Virus record (IMG/VR): IMGVR_UViG_2663762857_000020
From: a virus
Taxonomy: Duplodnaviria > Heunggongvirae > Uroviricota > Caudoviricetes
Strand: one strand, 5' to 3'
Length of the DNA stretch: 6,833 nucleotides
Shown here: one piece after another, positions 1 to 6,833 of the stretch
How the letters are laid out: each line of letters opens with the position of its first letter
Numbering within the stretch: position 1 is the stretch's first letter
Translations under genes and position numbers: made by a program
The notes under the pieces: generated by a model
The model's input: only the letters and a program-made list of their open reading frames with translations
What the model was told of the DNA's origin: nothing
Database searches by the model: none

Positions 1-50
1 TGATTGACAGTGTGAAGGTGGAAGTGAACAACGCGGATGCCGCGGCATGA
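1..50 (+). CDS. 3' end of an upstream gene (C-terminus ...IDSVKVEVNNADAAA*); product unknown, position suggests the late antiterminator Q but this is unverified
   Basis: Only the frame starting at nt 3 is open through the window edge, ending at TGA 48-50; E. coli-like codon choice. Only 15 codons visible, so weak. Confidence 0.35.
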   Translation, partial: IDSVKVEVNNADAAA

Positions 51-88
51 TAAAAAAAGCCGCCAGCGGCAGGAATGGAAGCTGGCGG
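51..88 (-). terminator. Putative intrinsic-terminator-like hairpin, oriented for the minus strand
   Basis: 8-bp GC-rich stem (60-67 CCGCCAGC pairs with 81-88 GCTGGCGG), 13-nt loop, immediately flanked by an A7 run at 52-58 on the + strand, which is a U-run after the stem on the minus strand. No U-tract follows the stem on the + strand. Confidence 0.3.
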
Positions 89-185
89 AGGTAATCCCAA
101 TGGAGAATGTAAAGAAAAGATGCTTTCGTATATCGGTCTTTTAAATGAAAACAGTTCTCATTGTCAACCATAACGGTAATAAACT

Positions 186-380
186 ATGACATTTATTCAT
201 CAGGTGATGCTGTACTTCTGTACGGCGGTCTGTGTGCTGTATCTTCTTTCGGGTGGGTACAGGGCAGTGCGCGATTTCTGGCGCAGGCAGATTGATAAAA
301 GGGCCGCAGAGAAAATCAGCGCCAGTCAGTCAGCCGGAGCAAAAACAGAAGCCCCACTCATTCCGGAACAACCTTCTTAA
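186..380 (+). CDS. Hypothetical small protein (64 aa) with one predicted N-terminal transmembrane helix
   Basis: ORF from the six-frame track; hydrophobic stretch VMLYFCTAVCVLYLLSGGY followed by a charged tail. No clear Shine-Dalgarno; no homolog recognised. Confidence 0.3.
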   Translation: MTFIHQVMLYFCTAVCVLYLLSGGYRAVRDFWRRQIDKRAAEKISASQSAGAKTEAPLIPEQPS

Positions 381-405
381 TAACCCCTTTCAACGAGAAA
401 ATCCT

Positions 406-696
406 ATGTCAGAAATAAAATCGCTGGTCACTGCTGAGGCAGTGAAGGAAGTCCTGCGCTCTGAAGAAGTCCGGAGCGCACTGAAACAGCAACTTCGGCA
501 GAACCTTGAGGCGCGTCTTGATGCAGAAGTGGATTCAATTCTGGATGAATTGCTTGGTGCACAGCCGGAACCATCCCCGGAACTGCTTCCGGAACCACAG
601 GCGGAAGATGTCACCACGGAAAATGGTGATATTCAGCCGGAGCCACCGGTGACGGATATGACAGACACACAGCCAGAATCGGGCACAATGCTGTAA
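406..696 (+). CDS. Hypothetical acidic protein (96 aa), helical N-terminal half and Pro/Glu-rich C-terminal half
   Basis: ATG at 406 preceded by a weak SD (GAG ~9 nt upstream). The track ORF 232..696 is the same frame with an upstream ATG lacking an RBS and overlapping the 186..380 ORF, so the 406 start is preferred. About 22 D/E versus 7 K/R by hand count. Confidence 0.5.
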   Translation: MSEIKSLVTAEAVKEVLRSEEVRSALKQQLRQNLEARLDAEVDSILDELLGAQPEPSPELLPEPQAEDVTTENGDIQPEPPVTDMTDTQPESGTML

Positions 697-771
697 CGGT
701 GAGTCAGGGTCATCAGTAAAGAGCTGGTGGCCCTTTTGTTGTTGTGAGCTTCCGAGTACGGGAGACGGGGT

Positions 772-987
772 ATGTACCAGATGGAAAAAATCACAACAGG
801 TGTGTCATACACCACGTCAGCGGTGGGAACGGGCTACTGGTTCCTGCAGTTGCTGGACAGGGTTTCCCCGTCTCAGTGGGCGGCAATAGGCGTGCTGGGG
901 AGTCTGTTGTTTGGGCTGCTGACATATCTGACTAACCTGTATTTCAAAATCAGAGAGGACCGTCGTAAGGCGGCGCGGGGAGAGTAA
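772..987 (+). CDS. essQ: Class II holin / pinholin of the phage 21 S21 (EssD/EssQ) family, 71 aa, with dual-start motif
   Basis: Protein [71 protein letters not shown] matches recalled S21/EssD/EssQ sequence nearly residue for residue. Two transmembrane segments, charged C-terminus, Met1 and Met4 starts, strong SD GGGAGACGGGG at 760-770. Confidence 0.9.
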
Positions 988-991
988 AGCG

Positions 992-1336
992 ATGAAGAAA
1001 AAATACGAACTGGTTGTTAAAGGGATAAATAATTACCCGAATAAGATTACTGTTACTGTGGCACTGGAAATTGGTGGGTATCCGTCACTGTTGTTGCCAG
1101 ATGTGGCGATTAGTCTTGACCGTACTGAAGATGCCACGCTGGAGTTTTACGAAGCTGAGGCGAAAAAGCAGGCGAAGCAGTTTTTCATGGATGTTGCTGC
1201 CGGGTTATGTGAAGGGGATGGTCCGTTGCCGGAAAAGCGCCCCGTAATTTTAGAGGCGCAGGATGTGTTGATAACCTACAGAGGAAAACTACCGGGAATA
1301 ATTACTGGTTCTCTGAAGACTCCACCGCTGGCCTGA
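992..1336 (+). CDS. Small hypothetical protein (114 aa) between holin and endolysin; tentatively DUF1327/YdfR-like
   Basis: ORF starts 4 nt after the holin stop, with GGGGAGAG upstream (translational coupling likely). It occupies the position of ydfR between essQ and rrrQ in the E. coli Qin prophage. The family assignment is from memory of gene order, not sequence comparison. Confidence 0.6.
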   Translation: MKKKYELVVKGINNYPNKITVTVALEIGGYPSLLLPDVAISLDRTEDATLEFYEAEAKKQAKQFFMDVAAGLCEGDGPLPEKRPVILEAQDVLITYRGKLPGIITGSLKTPPLA

Positions 1337-1386
1337 AGACTTAACATATCCAGGGATTTGAAATCGATAAACCCTGATAAATATCC

Positions 1387-2424
1387 ATGAACACCAAAAT
1401 CAAATACGGCCTGTCGGCTGCCGTTCTGGCGCTGATTGCCGCAGGTGCGCCTGCGCCTGAAATCCTCGACCAGTTTCTGGATGAAAAGGAAGGTAACCAC
1501 ACCACGGCATACCGTGATGGCGCGGGTATCTGGACCATCTGCCGCGGTGCCATCCTGGTGGATAGTAAACCTGTCGTTCCGGGCATGAAGTTGTCGAAGG
1601 AAAAATGCGACCAGGTTAACGCCATTGAGCGTGATAAAGCGCTGGCGTGGGTGGAGAAAAACATCAGAGTGCCGCTGACCGAACCCCAGAAAGCGGGGAT
1701 CGCGTCATTCTGTCCGTACAACATTGGTCCCGGTAAGTGTTTCCCGTCGACGTTTTACAGACGAATTAATGCTGGTGATCGCAGGGGAGCATGCGAGGCG
1801 ATTCGCTGGTGGATTAAGGACGGTGAGCGGTATTTTTTCTGTAATGAGCTGAATGAAAAAGGGGAGCCGGTCACCTGGCAGGGGCGGCAATATCAGGCGT
1901 ACCCGATTGAGGGGAGTGGCTTTGAGATGAACGGAAAGGGCAGCAGTGCCCGCCCGTCGCTGACGGTGTCCAATCTTTTCGGCCTTGTCACCGGAATGGC
2001 GGAGGATTTGCAGAGCCTGGTGGGGGCCACGGTGGTCCGCCGCCGGGTGTATGCCCGTTTTCTGGATGCGGTGAATTTCGTTGCGGGCAATCCGGAAGCG
2101 GACCCGGAGCAGGAGCTGAGTGACCGCTGGGTGGTGGAGCAGATGTCGCAGCTGACAGCCATGACGGCCTCGTTTGTGCTGGCCACACCGACCGAGACGG
2201 ACGGGGCGCTGTTTCCCGGTCGTATCATGCTGGCGAACACCTGTATGTGGACCTACCGCTCTGATGAGTGTGGTTACACGGGCGGGGCTGTGGCGGATGA
2301 GTTCGATAAACCCACCACGGATATCCGTAAGGACAGATGCAGCAAGTGCATGCGCGGGTGTGAACTGCGCAGGAATGTCGGCAATTTTGGCGGTTTCCTT
2401 TCCATTAATAAACTTTCGCAGTAA
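1387..2424 (+). CDS. Chimeric ORF (345 aa): SAR-type lysozyme of the R21/RrrD family (T4-lysozyme-like, GH24), residues ~1-146, fused in frame to the C-terminal ~198 residues of lambda-type minor tail protein L
   Basis: N-terminus has a Gly/Ala-rich SAR segment (YGLSAAVLALIAAGAPAP) and the E-8aa-D-5aa-T catalytic spacing (E35, D44, T50 in EGNHTTAYRDGAGIWT). From ERYFFCNELNEKGEPVTWQGRQYQ to the C-terminal NVGNFGGFLSINKLSQ it matches recalled lambda L from about residue 33 onward, including the four C-terminal cysteines. Junction is at codons 146/147 (nt 1822-1827). The lysozyme C-terminus and the L N-terminus are both missing. Confidence 0.8.
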   Translation: MNTKIKYGLSAAVLALIAAGAPAPEILDQFLDEKEGNHTTAYRDGAGIWTICRGAILVDSKPVVPGMKLSKEKCDQVNAIERDKALAWVEKNIRVPLTEPQKAGIASFCPYNIGPGKCFPSTFYRRINAGDRRGACEAIRWWIKDGERYFFCNELNEKGEPVTWQGRQYQAYPIEGSGFEMNGKGSSARPSLTVSNLFGLVTGMAEDLQSLVGATVVRRRVYARFLDAVNFVAGNPEADPEQELSDRWVVEQMSQLTAMTASFVLATPTETDGALFPGRIMLANTCMWTYRSDECGYTGGAVADEFDKPTTDIRKDRCSKCMRGCELRRNVGNFGGFLSINKLSQ

Positions 2425-2434
2425 ATCCCGGTTT

Positions 2435-3178
2435 ATGACACAGACTGAATCAGCGATTCTGGCGCATGCCCGGCGGTGTGCGCCTGCGGAGTCGTGCGGC
2501 TTCGTGATAAGCACGCCGGAGGGCAACCAGTACCAGCCGTGCGTGAATATCTCTGCAGAGCCTGAGGCGTATTTTCGTATCGCACCGGAAGACTGGCTGC
2601 GGGCAGAGATGCAGGGGGAGATTGTGGCACTGGTCCACAGTCATCCCGGTGGTCTGCCCTGGCTGAGCGAGGCTGACCGGCGGCTGCAGATAAAAAGCGC
2701 ACTGCCCTGGTGGCTGGTCAGCCGGGGTGACATTCACAAATTCCGCTGTGTGCCACATCTGACAGGACGGCGCTTTGCGCACGGGGTGACGGACTGTTAC
2801 ACGCTGTTCCGGGATGCATACCATCTGGCAGGCATTGATATGCCGGATTTTCACCGTGAGGATGACTGGTGGTGCAACGGTCAGAACCTTTACCTGGACA
2901 ATATGGAGGAAACGGGCTTTTACCGGGTGCCCCTGTCCTCTGCACTGCCGGGCGATATCCTGCTGTGCTGCTTCGGCGCATCGGTGGCTAATCATGCCGC
3001 CATTTACTGCGGCAACGGTGAACTGCTTCACCATCTGCCTGAACAACTGAGTAAACGGGAGAGGTATTCCGAAAAATGGCAACGACGAACGCATTCTGTC
3101 TGGCGTCACCGCCACTGGCACGCATCTGCCTTCACGGGGATTTACAACGATTTGGCCGCCGCCTCAGCCTGTATGTGA
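2435..3178 (+). CDS. K: Tail tip assembly protein K (MPN/JAMM-like plus NlpC/P60-like domains), 247 aa
   Basis: Near-colinear match to recalled lambda K (MTQTESAILAHARRCAPAESCGFVISTPEG...). HSHPGGLPWLSEAD (HxH...S..D) JAMM-like motif, and NlpC/P60-type Cys (GVTDCYTLF) and His (NHAAIY). Starts 11 nt after the L-fusion stop. Confidence 0.9.
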   Translation: MTQTESAILAHARRCAPAESCGFVISTPEGNQYQPCVNISAEPEAYFRIAPEDWLRAEMQGEIVALVHSHPGGLPWLSEADRRLQIKSALPWWLVSRGDIHKFRCVPHLTGRRFAHGVTDCYTLFRDAYHLAGIDMPDFHREDDWWCNGQNLYLDNMEETGFYRVPLSSALPGDILLCCFGASVANHAAIYCGNGELLHHLPEQLSKRERYSEKWQRRTHSVWRHRHWHASAFTGIYNDLAAASACM

Positions 3179-3756
3179 ACACGGCAGCGGAAGCCATCCG
3201 CGCACTGTCGATGCAGGTGCCGGGCTTTCGCCGTCAGATGAACGAAGGCTGGTACCAGATACGCATTGCCGGTGAGGATACGGCACCGGAGGCGGTGTAT
3301 GCCCGCCTTCACGAACCACTGAGTGAGGGAACGGTTATCCATATTGTGCCGCGACTGGCCGGGGCCGGAAAGGGAGGACTGCAGATTGTGCTGGGGGCGG
3401 CAGCCATCGTGGGCTCTTTCCTCACTGCCGGTGCCTCGATGGCGTTATGGGGTACAGCCCTGAGTGCCGGCGGTTTTTCTGCCACCACGATGCTGTTTTC
3501 ACTGGGGGCCAGCATGATTCTGGGTGGTGTGGCCCAGATGCTGGCCCCGAAGGCAAAAACACCGGATTACCGCGCAACGGATAACGGCAGACAGAACACG
3601 TATTTTTCGTCACTGGACAACATGATTGCCCAGGGTAACCCGATGCCGGTGCCTTACGGGGAAATGCTGGTTGGCTCCCGCCGTATATCCCAGGACATCA
3701 GTACCCGTGATGAAGGCGGGTGCGGAAAGGTCGTGGTTATCGGGCGGCAGGGGTAA
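3076..3756 (+). CDS. I: Tail tip assembly protein I, 226 aa
   Basis: Matches recalled lambda I family (...LHGDLQRFGRRLSLYVNTAAEAIRALSMQVPGFRRQMNEGWYQIRIAGED...). Overlaps the 3' end of K by 103 nt in another frame, the same arrangement I recall for lambda K/I. SD GGGAGAGG at 3057-3064. Confidence 0.9.
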   Translation: MATTNAFCLASPPLARICLHGDLQRFGRRLSLYVNTAAEAIRALSMQVPGFRRQMNEGWYQIRIAGEDTAPEAVYARLHEPLSEGTVIHIVPRLAGAGKGGLQIVLGAAAIVGSFLTAGASMALWGTALSAGGFSATTMLFSLGASMILGGVAQMLAPKAKTPDYRATDNGRQNTYFSSLDNMIAQGNPMPVPYGEMLVGSRRISQDISTRDEGGCGKVVVIGRQG

Positions 3757-3760
3757 AAAG

Positions 3761-3798
3761 AATAAAAAAAATCCCGCAGTGATCGCGGAGCTGCGGGG
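3761..3798 (-). terminator. Rho-independent terminator, minus strand
   Basis: Minus-strand RNA reads CCCCGCAG-(11-nt loop)-CUGCGGG followed directly by UUUUUUUU (+ strand A-run 3763-3770). 7-bp GC-rich stem at 3773-3779 / 3791-3797. No U-tract follows the stem on the + strand. Confidence 0.7.
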
Positions 3799-3858
3799 AC
3801 AGACAAAGATTAGAGTTAAGGAGTTGTTTTTGTTACTCGGGCAAAAAAACACTAACGC
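3762..3858 (-). ncRNA. Candidate small RNA (~95 nt) in the I-J intergenic insert, antisense to the tail operon
   Basis: Bounded by the minus-strand promoter at 3865-3892 (predicted start near G at 3858) and the terminator at 3761-3798. No ATG in the transcribed segment. Predicted RNA has a 5' stem (GUUUUUU / AAAAAC), a single-stranded CA-rich and CU-rich region (AACAAAAACAACUCCUUAACUCUAAUCUUUGUCUGU) and a terminator with U-tail, the layout typical of Hfq-dependent sRNAs. Confidence 0.45.
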
Positions 3859-3864
3859 AGCGAA

Positions 3865-3892
3865 ATTATACGCGCCACAGTCAGTTTGTGAA
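3865..3892 (-). promoter_or_regulatory. Sigma70-type promoter, minus strand: -35 TTCACA, 16-bp spacer, -10 TATAAT
   Basis: Minus strand reads TTCACAaactgactgtggcgcgTATAAT. The -10 is a perfect consensus (+ strand 3865-3870), the -35 is 5/6 (+ strand 3887-3892), and a purine sits 7 nt downstream. Confidence 0.5.
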
Positions 3893-3964
3893 AATGTGAA
3901 GATATTCAGAATTTTTATGCCATTACCGGTTTTTACCAACAGGATTATCGGTGGACATGAAAGA

Positions 3965-3999
3965 AAACCCCGGTATCTGCTGATACCGGGGTTTCTCTT
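3965..3999. terminator. Strong GC-rich hairpin, terminator-like in both orientations
   Basis: Stem AAACCCCGGTATC (3965-3977) pairs with GATACCGGGGTTT (3982-3994) around a 4-nt loop TGCT. Followed on the + strand by TTTCTCTTT; on the minus strand the stem is followed by a U-rich stretch. A second short inverted repeat, AGCATG (4001-4006) / CATGCT (4021-4026), follows. Confidence 0.35.
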
Positions 4000-4097
4000 T
4001 AGCATGGCAGAAATGTGTTTCATGCTTTTCGGGCGAAGGATATCCGACTTCTGTACGGAATGGCAAGTGGCGGTTAATTTATTCAGGGGAAGGCTGT

Positions 4098-6833
4098 ATG
4101 GGAAAAGGTGGCGGTAAGGCACACACGCCTCGTGAGGCGAAGGATAATCTCAAATCCACGCAGATGATGAGCGTGATTGATGCGGTTGGTGAGGGACCGA
4201 TAGAAGGCCCGGTGAAGGGACTGCAGAGTATCCTGGTGAACAAAACCCCGCTGACGGACACGGACGGTAATCCCGTGATACACGGTGTGACGGCGGTCTG
4301 GCGCGCCGGGGAGCAGGAGCAGACACCACCGGAAGGCTTTGAGTCCTCCGGAGCTGAAACTGTACTGGGCGTGGAAGTGACGAAGGCAAAACCGGTGACG
4401 CGCACCATTACGTCCGCGAACATTGACCGCCTGCGGGTTACCTTCGGGGTGCAGTCACTGGTGCAGACCACGTCAAAGGGTGACCGAAACCCGACATCCG
4501 TCCGCCTGCTGATTCAGTTACAGCGTAACGGTAACTGGGTGACAGAAAAGGATGTCACCATTAACGGCAAGACCACCTCGCAGTTTCTGGCGTCGGTGAT
4601 TCTGGATAATCTGCCTCCCCGTCCTTTTAACATCCGGATGGTCCGGGAGACGGCGGACAGCACCACGGACCAGTTGCAGAACAGAACACTCTGGTCATCG
4701 TACACCGAAATCATCGATGTGAAACAGTGCTACCCGAACACGGCGATTGTGGGGCTGCAGGTGGATGCGGAGCAGTTCGGTGGTCAGCAGATGACGGTGA
4801 ACTACCATATCCGCGGTCGCATCATCCAGGTGCCGTCAAACTATGACCCGGAAAAACGCACCTACAGCGGTATCTGGGACGGCAGTCTGAAACCGGCATA
4901 CAGCAACAACCCGGCCTGGTGCCTGTGGGACATGCTGACTCACCCGCGCTACGGGATGGGAAAACGTCTGGGGGCGGCGGATGTGGACAAGTGGGCGCTG
5001 TATGCCATCGGGCAGTACTGCGACCAGACGGTCCCGGATGGTTTCGGGGGCACAGAGCCGCGGATGACCTTTAATGCGTACCTGGCACAACAGCGTAAGG
5101 CGTGGGACGTTCTCAGTGATTTCTGCTCGGCGATGCGCTGTATGCCGGTATGGAACGGCCAGACGCTGACGTTCGTTCAGGACCGCCCGTCGGATGTGGT
5201 GTGGCCGTACACCAACAGCGATGTGGTGGTGGATGATAACGGCGTGGGGTTCCGCTACAGCTTCAGTGCCCTGAAGGACCGGCACACGGCGGTGGAGGTG
5301 AATTACACCGACCCGCAGAACGGCTGGCAGACCTCCACGGAACTGGTGGAAGACCCGGAAGCCATACTGCGCTACGGACGCAACCTGCTGAAGATGGATG
5401 CGTTCGGCTGCACCAGTCGCGGTCAGGCCCACCGTGCCGGGCTGTGGGTGATAAAGACAGAACTGCTGGAAACGCAGACGGTGGATTTCACACTCGGGTC
5501 ACAGGGGCTGCGGCACACACCCGGTGACATCATTGAAATCTGTGATAACGACTATGCCGGAACCCTGACCGGCGGACGTGTCCTGTCCATTGATGCTGCC
5601 ACCCGCACCCTGACGCTGGACCGTGAAGTGACACTTCCGGGGACAGGTACATCGACGGTGAACCTGATTAACGGCAGCGGTAAGCCGGTGAGTGTGGACA
5701 TCACCGCACACCCCGCGCCGGACCGGATACAGGTCAGTACCCTGCCTGATGGTGTGGAGACATACGGGGTGTGGGGACTCTCCCTGCCGTCACTGCGCCG
5801 TCGCCTGTTCCGCTGTGTCTCCATCCGGGAAAACACGGACGGCACCTTTGCCATCACGGCGGTGCAGCACGTACCGGAAAAAGAAGCCATTGTGGATAAC
5901 GGAGCCCGCTTTGAGCCGCAGTCAGGCACCCTGAACAGCGTTATCCCACCGGCAGTACAGCACCTCACGGTGGAGGTGAGCGCAGCTGACAGCCAGTATC
6001 TGGCGCTGGCGAAATGGGACACGCCGAGGGTGGTGAAGGGCGTGCGCTTCAGTCTGCGCCTGACCAGTGGAAGCGATGAGAACAGCCGCCTGCTGACCAC
6101 CGCCATCACTGCCGATACGGAGCACCGTTTCAGTGGCCTGCCTCTCGGGGAATACACCCTGACGGTCAGGGCGATAAACAGCTACGGCCAGCAGGGCGAA
6201 CCGGCCACCACCACGTTCCGGATTAATGCGCCTGCAGCACCGGCCACCATTGAGCTGACGCCGGGGTATTTTCAGATAACGGCGGTACCGCGTCTTGCGG
6301 TGTATGACCCGACGGTGCAGTTTGAGTTCTGGTTTTCGGAGGCAAAAATTGCAGACGCCGCACAGGTGGAAACCTCTGCCCGTTATCTGGGGACCGGCAG
6401 TCAGTGGAGTGTCTCCGGTCCGCACATTAAGCCCGGAAAGGATTTCTGGTTTTATGTGCGCAGCGTCAACCTGGTGGGTAAATCTGCTTTTGTGGAAGCC
6501 AGTGGACGGGCGAGCAATGATGCTGCGGGCTATCTGGAACTTTTCCGGGAAAAGATAGGAAAAACGCATCTGGCAGAGGCGCTGTGGGCAGAGATTGACA
6601 ACAGTCAGCTGAAGGACGAGATGGCGGAAATGCAGACCACCATCACCGAAACCCGCAATGAAATCACACAGACGGTCAGTAAAACGCTGGAGGACCAGAG
6701 CGCCACCATACAGCAAATCCAGCGTGTGCAGACGGACACCCGTAATGACCTGAACAGCATGTGGGCGGTGAAGCTGCAGAAGATGCAGGACGGACGCCTT
6801 TATATTGCCGGTATTGGTGCAGGCATTGAGAAT
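4098..6833 (+). CDS. J: Tail tip / host specificity protein J, N-terminal 912 codons (3' end beyond the window)
   Basis: ATG at 4098 with SD AGGGGAAGG. Hand translation is open and in frame to the window end. Matches recalled lambda J from the N-terminus (MGKG..HTPREAKDNLKSTQ..) through conserved blocks (NPAWCLWDMLTHPRYGMGKRLGAADVDKWALY, RLFRCVSIRENTDGTFAITAVQHVPEKEAIVDNGA, VYDPTVQFEFWFSE). The last ~100 residues in the window diverge from lambda. Confidence 0.95.
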   Translation, partial: MGKGGGKAHTPREAKDNLKSTQMMSVIDAVGEGPIEGPVKGLQSILVNKTPLTDTDGNPVIHGVTAVWRAGEQEQTPPEGFESSGAETVLGVEVTKAKPVTRTITSANIDRLRVTFGVQSLVQTTSKGDRNPTSVRLLIQLQRNGNWVTEKDVTINGKTTSQFLASVILDNLPPRPFNIRMVRETADSTTDQLQNRTLWSSYTEIIDVKQCYPNTAIVGLQVDAEQFGGQQMTVNYHIRGRIIQVPSNYDPEKRTYSGIWDGSLKPAYSNNPAWCLWDMLTHPRYGMGKRLGAADVDKWALYAIGQYCDQTVPDGFGGTEPRMTFNAYLAQQRKAWDVLSDFCSAMRCMPVWNGQTLTFVQDRPSDVVWPYTNSDVVVDDNGVGFRYSFSALKDRHTAVEVNYTDPQNGWQTSTELVEDPEAILRYGRNLLKMDAFGCTSRGQAHRAGLWVIKTELLETQTVDFTLGSQGLRHTPGDIIEICDNDYAGTLTGGRVLSIDAATRTLTLDREVTLPGTGTSTVNLINGSGKPVSVDITAHPAPDRIQVSTLPDGVETYGVWGLSLPSLRRRLFRCVSIRENTDGTFAITAVQHVPEKEAIVDNGARFEPQSGTLNSVIPPAVQHLTVEVSAADSQYLALAKWDTPRVVKGVRFSLRLTSGSDENSRLLTTAITADTEHRFSGLPLGEYTLTVRAINSYGQQGEPATTTFRINAPAAPATIELTPGYFQITAVPRLAVYDPTVQFEFWFSEAKIADAAQVETSARYLGTGSQWSVSGPHIKPGKDFWFYVRSVNLVGKSAFVEASGRASNDAAGYLELFREKIGKTHLAEALWAEIDNSQLKDEMAEMQTTITETRNEITQTVSKTLEDQSATIQQIQRVQTDTRNDLNSMWAVKLQKMQDGRLYIAGIGAGIEN

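Follow-up and report, generated by a model that had tools for sequence, protein, structure and literature searches.

The window was the entire 6,833-bp contig CDQW01002556.1 (NCBI assembly GCA_000936715.1), and all genes assigned in it lie on the plus strand. The 3' end of a SASA-family (nanS-p-like) esterase gene (1..50) was assigned from colinearity with an intact prophage of E. coli EC2 (L007), as window position 1 aligned to L007 position 2699, within an annotated esterase CDS (787-2748). We take a nanS-p-like esterase gene to be the gene ahead of the lysis cassette. Two small late-region genes (DUF1378, 186..380, PF07125, E 9e-35; DUF826, 406..696, PF05696, E 2e-28) were followed by an intact P21-type class II holin gene of the pinholin family (772..987; 71 aa; PF04971, E 9e-33), a YdfR/DUF1327 gene lying between holin and endolysin (992..1336; PF07041, E 2e-45) and a chimeric R'-'L open reading frame (1387..2424; 345 codons). 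Downstream of the chimera were the tail-tip gene K (2435..3178; JAB + NlpC/P60, PF14464 and PF00877; intact, 247 aa), the tail assembly gene I (3175..3756; PF06805; intact, 193 aa) and the first 912 codons of the tail-tip/host-specificity gene J (4098..6833; PF24801, PF13550, PF24421, PF24489 and PF09327), which runs off the contig and was complete on the sister contig L004 (1176 aa). The holin and K were equal in length to those of intact relatives. The setting of L was atypical relative to the order M-L-K-I-J: K, I and J were found downstream, but a lysis cassette replaced M, H and the remaining genes upstream.

The chimeric ORF began with ATG and was read through 345 codons without an internal stop or frameshift (ORF translation). 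Pfam assigned PF00959 (Phage_lysozyme) to residues 33-147 (profile 2-112 of 125; 76.2 bits against a cut-off of 22.3) and PF05100 (Phage_tail_L) to residues 146-343 (profile 5-206 of 206; 305.9 bits against a cut-off of 25), and PHROGs returned an endolysin (phrog_7, E 2e-50) and a minor tail protein. Among solved structures, residues 30-148 matched the SAR endolysins R21 (3hde) and RrrD (4zpu) at E ~2e-13, with the alignment stopping at chain residue 144 of chains 165-175 residues long, and residues 145-345 matched residues 32-232 of lambda gpL (8iyk_L, E 7e-112). Alignment to intact lysozyme genes identified 1387..1825 as codons 1-146 of the 177 codons of a SAR-type endolysin, so that 31 C-terminal codons are gone relative to intact 177-aa lysozymes; alignment to intact L identified 1826..2424 as codons 34-232 of the minor tail (tail-tip) protein, the N-terminal residues 1-33 being absent and homology starting at L nt 96-101. 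The sequence-only reading had described an in-frame lysozyme'-'L fusion at 1387-2424, broken at about lysozyme residue 146 and L residue 33 and followed by K, I and J in normal order. Pfam, PHROGs and the uninterrupted ORF establish that the fusion is real, the DNA alignments put its breakpoints at residue 146 of 177 and residue 33/34 of 232, and K (2435-3178), I (3175-3756) and J (from 4098) follow in that order. The two halves matched the lysozyme and gpL families, both with truncated coverage.

The lysozyme moiety retained E35, D44 and T50 in the fusion translation, with the Glu-8aa-Asp-5aa-Thr spacing that defines the catalytic triad of T4-type lysozymes and R21. Residues 8-24 form an Ala/Gly-rich N-terminal segment, GLSAAVLALIAAGAPAP, which is SAR-like by eye, and a P21-type holin (PF04971) lies upstream. 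The lysozyme is of RrrQ/RrrD type: one E. coli record is named rrrQ, and the RrrD structure 4zpu was matched. In the L moiety every cysteine of the C-terminal region aligned with a cysteine of lambda gpL (8iyk_L alignment); the C-terminal cysteines of gpL reportedly coordinate an Fe-S cluster. Two antisense ORFs on the minus strand beneath the fusion (1705-2526 and 1341-1724) had no Pfam match and were treated as spurious.

Aligned to lysozyme genes, the window was identical or nearly identical up to position 1825 and unrelated beyond it. Aligned to intact L, it was perfectly matched from position 1821 and, with one mismatch, back to 1817. The crossover was thus assigned to the microhomology CGGTG (1821..1825), within a stretch with 8 of 9 matches over 1817-1825 (AGGnCGGTG). 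Both parental sites carry CGGTG in EC2 and KY204; the R parent reads ...AAGGACGGTG/GCAG... and the L parent reads ...CAGGGCGGTG/AGCGG..., where the slash marks the join. The junction product consists of R nt 1-439 and L nt 101-699 and is 1,038 nt long, in frame. A microhomology-mediated crossover at a Gly codon had been proposed from the letters of the window, and the perfect 5-nt repeat CGGTG does span a Gly codon; the search for parental sequences on each side, suggested at the same time, recovered intact R and L genes and fixed the breakpoint at 1821-1825. Enumeration of 258,502 distinct R x L junction products gave microhomology of at least 5 nt in 0.15% (P = 0.0015). Because junctions of this kind are so few, a short-homology-mediated event is favoured over a random join.

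Against the EC2 prophage the window was colinear apart from one gap: window 1-1825 corresponded to L007 2699-4955 and window 1817-6832 to L007 20001-24914. Identity of the window to E. coli prophages was 92-99%. The missing stretch measured ~15.05-15.12 kb in intact relatives, a size inferred from relatives at 92-98% identity and not from the true parent. Within the L007 gap lay, at the lysis end, the 3' end of R, two small ORFs and Rz/Rz1 (Rz-type lysis protein); the packaging and head genes for TerS, TerL, W (head-tail joining), the portal, the S49 protease, decoration protein D, the major capsid protein E, FI and FII; and the tail genes Z, U, V, chaperones G and T, tape measure H, M and the 5' end of L. 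The best matches on the lysis side (97.0%) and on the L side (98.0%) came from JE86-ST05, JE86-ST02, UCPROB-001 and UCPROB-002, in which the two matches lay in one prophage, on one strand, 15,122 bp apart. Since both halves are 15,122 bp apart in one intact prophage, a single intra-prophage deletion of ~15.1 kb is the simplest account. The proposal that one deletion had removed Rz/Rz1 together with the packaging, head and tail-shaft genes was therefore borne out by a single gap of ~15.05-15.12 kb with those genes inside it. The loss of terminase, portal and capsid is sufficient by itself to make the prophage defective.

The identical 345-aa fusion protein was recovered from three contigs belonging to three NCBI assemblies (GCA_000936715.1, GCA_000944435.1 and GCA_001373195.1). 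These contigs were 98.6-99.0% identical overall, with flanks differing by 1-1.5%, and were 100% identical at the nucleotide level over window 908-2440. Differences were clustered in K (2441-3046), in J and in the upstream part, with a 5-nt indel at 2430-2434. That three assemblies with different flanks have exactly the same junction indicates that different strains share one inherited junction. The junction was found in 0 of 5,426 complete E. coli genomes and in 0 of 50,697 phage records; the exact junction 34-mer had no match in GTDB species representatives or in metagenome contigs, and its sole IMG/VR match was a copy of one of the three contigs (L005). Judged by these sequence searches, the scar is rare and lineage-restricted. 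In one further lysozyme/L pair, from E. coli SRCC 1675 (H1), a truncated L comes first and an intact, separate lysozyme second, close to the record start/end; this order is opposite to that of the window, and the pair was rejected as a different junction.

We interpret the locus as the scar left when a lambdoid prophage lost ~15.1 kb in one internal deletion, through CGGTG-mediated illegitimate recombination between R and L, and assign this reading a probability of about 0.9. By sequence similarity the prophage is lambda-like, of Escherichia/Shigella, and kin to the ompW-integrated and Stx-type phages of E. coli. RecA-independent short-homology recombination would have taken place between CGGTG in the 3' part of R and CGGTG in the 5' part of L, linking R nt 1-439 to L nt 101-699. 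The deletion would have taken the end of R, the spanins, the packaging, head, connector, tail tube, chaperone and tape measure genes, M and the start of L. The join would be in frame by chance (one in three), with the consequence that gene callers report a 345-aa lysozyme'-'L chimera. In the resulting prophage DNA packaging and the building of heads and tails should be impossible, and spanin and intact endolysin are absent; the holin gene is still intact, as are K, I and J of the tail tip. Such a scar resembles the products of short-homology illegitimate recombination in E. coli, in which a large deletion has a few shared bases at its endpoints and one copy of them is kept, and the 5-nt repeat CGGTG fits that class; the mechanism here is read from the scar. 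The scar fits replication slippage, single-strand annealing or end-joining of a break alike, and the three cannot be told apart.

It is quite improbable that R came from one resident lambdoid prophage and L from another, brought together by a deletion or inversion of the chromosome between the two, although several features of the contigs have that flavour. The host genome evidently carries several lambdoid prophages that are related, at both contig ends (1-51 and 6740-6833) the sequence departs from that of the sister contigs as it would at repeat boundaries, the clustered K and J differences across the three contigs resemble exchange with paralogous copies, and K'-'L and J'-'L chimeras found elsewhere have a gene order impossible by simple deletion. 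Both halves nevertheless lie within single intact prophages at 97-98% identity, with a spacing exact for one internal deletion, and on both sides of the junction the genes have the order and strand of a single late operon. An assembly or scaffolding chimera of reads from an intact R and an intact L, which had been named as an alternative at the outset, is very improbable. The assemblies are short-read drafts of >2,500 contigs, and lambdoid prophage genes are repeated within genomes; but the same junction was present in three separate assemblies with flanks differing by 1-1.5%, and the parents share just 5 identical bases at the join, far below any assembler overlap or k-mer. The common junction and the 5-nt overlap were taken to exclude that alternative, and comparable scars occur in closed chromosomes and in independent assemblies of one sample.

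A native two-domain protein, in which a functional tail-tip protein carries a peptidoglycan hydrolase domain as a virion-associated lysin, was also considered. Tail-associated muralytic domains are common in phages, and the ORF is intact, in frame and in possession of the catalytic residues E35/D44/T50. Such a protein is scarcely credible here. Each domain is cut short by comparison with its family, and the N-terminus resembles the SAR export segment of a lysis endolysin and lies within a holin-endolysin cassette. The head and tail-shaft genes on which a virion protein would depend are gone, and the exact protein occurs on only 3 contigs. The sequence-only reading had noted that a family with this architecture would count against a deletion. 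In a search of 5.8 billion protein clusters, none of the 120 matches listed combined PF00959 and PF05100 in one protein, and none of the matches listed had query coverage >63%; no native two-domain family was among them.

With the single internal deletion as the preferred reading, the fusion is most likely a non-functional relic, in frame by chance and with no selected function. If the late operon is still transcribed and the chimera translated, the putative SAR segment would carry the L moiety to the periplasm, where it could neither join the assembly of the tail tip in the cytoplasm nor be loaded with an Fe-S cluster. An element lacking spanin, intact endolysin, terminase, portal and capsid would be expected to give no normal lysis and no particles. 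Selection for an in-frame join was considered and found unsupported: 1/3 of joins are in frame by chance, 5'-truncated L ORFs starting from internal methionines are also common, and in-frame cases are preferentially noticed both by a reader of the sequence and by protein databases. For annotation, the 345-aa product is to be regarded as a pseudogene chimera and not as a new lysozyme-tail architecture.

A recent event is indicated by the absence of lesions in the holin, K, I and J genes together with the nucleotide identity of the fusion ORF in three strains. The absence of lesions in K, I, J and the holin fits a recent deletion and is compatible also with selection on the remainder. Across the three strains K and J vary in patches, as would fit exchange with other lambdoid prophages residing in the host. 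Prophage remnants are known to supply other lambdoid phages in the cell with tail and host-range alleles, and the patchy K/J differences of the three scar-bearing strains fit such a role. The locus is a clean, base-level case of one-step lambdoid prophage inactivation, of modest importance, in which a prophage loses its packaging, head, tail-shaft and spanin genes and retains its holin along with K, I and J, the tail-tip/host-range genes.

As a deletion scar the junction is ordinary, a fresh instance of well-known prophage decay. Incomplete prophages preferentially lose terminase, portal and lysis genes, and tail genes are retained (PMC7744054); PMC6379469, citing Bobay et al. 2014, likewise describes terminase, portal and lysis loss with tail retention. 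The prophage of E. coli CEA601S (NZ_CP166713.1, btsS/yehS) resembles that of the window in phage type and in the order DUF1378, DUF826, holin, YdfR, lysozyme and K-I-J, and its deletion too spans from the lysis cassette to L, with all morphogenesis genes gone. It differs in that the scar is Rz'-'L, with the left end in the spanin gene and the lysozyme intact, and in that the right end lies deep in L, with the last ~49 codons left; PGAP calls both remnants pseudogenes. In JNEC-KY204 an IS1 lies between Rz and an intact L, and the packaging-to-M genes are absent. The defective lambdoid prophages DLP12, Qin and Rac of E. coli K-12 and those of O157 have likewise lost packaging and head genes by internal deletions. 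DLP12 presumably retains essD-rrrD-rzpD and Qin essQ-ydfR-rrrQ, and some K-12/O157 cryptic prophages presumably keep tail-fibre genes. Their breakpoints differ from the present one, which is a clean in-frame R'-'L join with K, I and J intact. The clean join and the intact K, I and J suggest that the window's scar is a much younger event than those of the K-12/O157 cryptic prophages.

Joins of other late-operon genes to the 3' part of L (X'-'L) were also collected. In common with the window's ORF, they consist of an in-frame late-operon gene and the 3' part of L, with K (usually I and J) next, and arose through deletions within lambda-like prophages. They differ in their left partners, none of which is a lysozyme, and in their L endpoints, which fall at codons 2-4, 17-18, 25-26 and 68-164. 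Singletons in public assemblies joined Nu1, TerL, the portal, capsid E, gpG, gpT, a tail tube protein or gpM to L; named cases are Nu1'-'L (P0088), E'-'L (P0070), B'-'L (P0073), G'-'L (P0069) and esterase'-'L (P0178). Further partners included the tape measure, the S49 protease, TerL, the tail tube, a nanS-p-like esterase and rearranged K and J. When 1.84 billion representatives were searched exhaustively with a profile, the L starts of X'-'L chimeras fell at residues 3, 4, 23, 68-110, 123-132, 139, 147, 159 and 164, and L'-X chimeras were listed as well. The genomic contexts of Nu1'-'L, E'-'L, G'-'L and B'-'L (4 checked) were genuine prophage deletions followed by tail-tip/tail-fibre genes, and X'-'L junctions in other prophages had 2-6 nt of microhomology.

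Fourteen independent in-frame X'-'L chimeras had an L start before codon 34: nine at codons 2-4, four at codons 25-26 and one at codons 17-18. Their left endpoints were 14 different positions, in Nu1, A, B, E, V, G, T, an H-like protein, M and a chromosomal treR-like gene. Codons 2-4 of L lie within an 8-bp palindrome, GGATATCC, and codons 25-26 lie directly 5' of a hairpin, CGACCTgacagAGGTCG. The E'-'L and B'-'L junctions both map to lambda 13435-13441, inside GGATATCC, with microhomology of 6 and 2 nt, respectively; the Nu1'-'L junction maps to ~lambda 13502, just 5' of CGACCTgacagAGGTCG; and the window's own junction (codon 33/34) lies ~20 nt downstream of the codon 25-26 cluster. These positions raise the tentative and rather doubtful idea that the 5' ~100 nt of L are a preferred landing zone for prophage-inactivating deletions and not a random endpoint. 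If that were true, structure-directed breakage or template switching would occur there, or selection would keep L-K-I-J translated. Endpoints elsewhere in L are plentiful, so that a local hotspot is possible, not a rule.

Outside the deletion event, I and J are separated by an AT-rich non-coding insert of 341 nt (3757..4097), which is absent from lambda; this separation was missing from the sequence-only reading. Two long ORFs across the gap had no Pfam match and were treated as spurious. Nothing in the whole window reached Rfam gathering thresholds, and matches in 3700-4150 were at chance level only; the predicted fold of the insert was unremarkable (z = -1.5). On the minus strand the insert carries a near-consensus sigma-70 promoter-like site, TTCACA-16-TATAAT (3892->3865), followed after ~75 nt by a T-run terminator hairpin (3789->3773), and there is a second hairpin of 14 bp (3995->3964). 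In divergent relatives the promoter hexamers and the terminator stem were invariant and the stretch between them variable. The core of the insert was present in 53 phage records, mostly unannotated, with a few labelling a hypothetical protein there, and the insert is thus a conserved, mostly unannotated, predicted promoter-terminator unit.

Right-hand endpoints were compared among deletion chimeras of other prophages in which the front of a different gene is fused in frame to L (X'-'L), using proteins P0062-P0089 and the loci L008 10001-11131, L009 10001-10876, L012 4308-5159 and L013 5313-6557, with lambda (L011) 13429-13530 as the reference stretch. In these independent fusions the L endpoints were clustered even though the left endpoints were 14 different ones. 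Nine L endpoints fell at codons 2-4, within the palindrome GGATATCC, four at codons 25-26, immediately 5' of the hairpin CGACCTgacagAGGTCG, and one at codons 17-18. Microhomology at the junctions examined as DNA was 2-6 nt. A hotspot for deletions may exist at the 5' end of L.

Directly 3' of the fusion ORF, the window carries 5 bases more (GGTTT, 2430-2434) than the two sister contigs L004 and L005, between the ORF stop and the start of K. Differences from both contigs are then densely packed across K (2441-3046), and L004 and L005 share the same base at all of these positions in K. Both spacer lengths are also known from intact relatives (10 nt in JNEC-KY204, 5 nt in CEA601S). The sequence comparison suggests a mosaic recombination boundary directly 3' of L.

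Tail genes I and J are separated in the window by an AT-rich, non-coding insert of 341 nt (3757-4097; core 3765-3918), which lambda lacks. A near-consensus sigma-70 promoter (TTCACA-16-TATAAT, 3892->3865) and a terminator hairpin with T-run (3789->3773) were predicted from sequence on its minus strand, with a second hairpin, of 14 bp, at 3964-3995. Among divergent relatives, neither the promoter hexamers nor the terminator stem varies. Since the promoter stands ~75 nt upstream of the terminator hairpin, a small minus-strand transcript of ~95 nt is suggested, which would bear a C/U-rich unpaired stretch. The insert had no match in Rfam. Among phage records, 53 contain its core (those of PPompW and Stx phages); most leave it unannotated or label it 'hypothetical protein'.

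The defective prophage with the G'-'L fusion (L012) carries, 3' of its tail-fibre genes, a minus-strand gene of 534 aa with reverse-transcriptase (RVT_1) and TIR domains (12725-14329), which looks like defence-type cargo. The defective Nu1'-'L prophage (L008) has two IS3-family insertions of equal length in the nin region (783-1996 and 4272-5485). It is at a more advanced stage of decay, as judged by the loss of I and a J shortened to 882 aa (12145-14793).

Apparent tandem duplications of 30-90 residues were seen in singleton database proteins, inside L (P0016-P0018, P0022, P0044 and P0045) and inside lysozyme (P0020, P0085 and P0090); these are either genuine or assembly artefacts at repeats.

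At both ends (1-51 and 6740-6833) the window departs abruptly from the sequence of the sister contigs. Such ends are expected at branch points of an assembly graph that lead into paralogous copies of lambdoid prophages; several related prophages are probably present in the genome.
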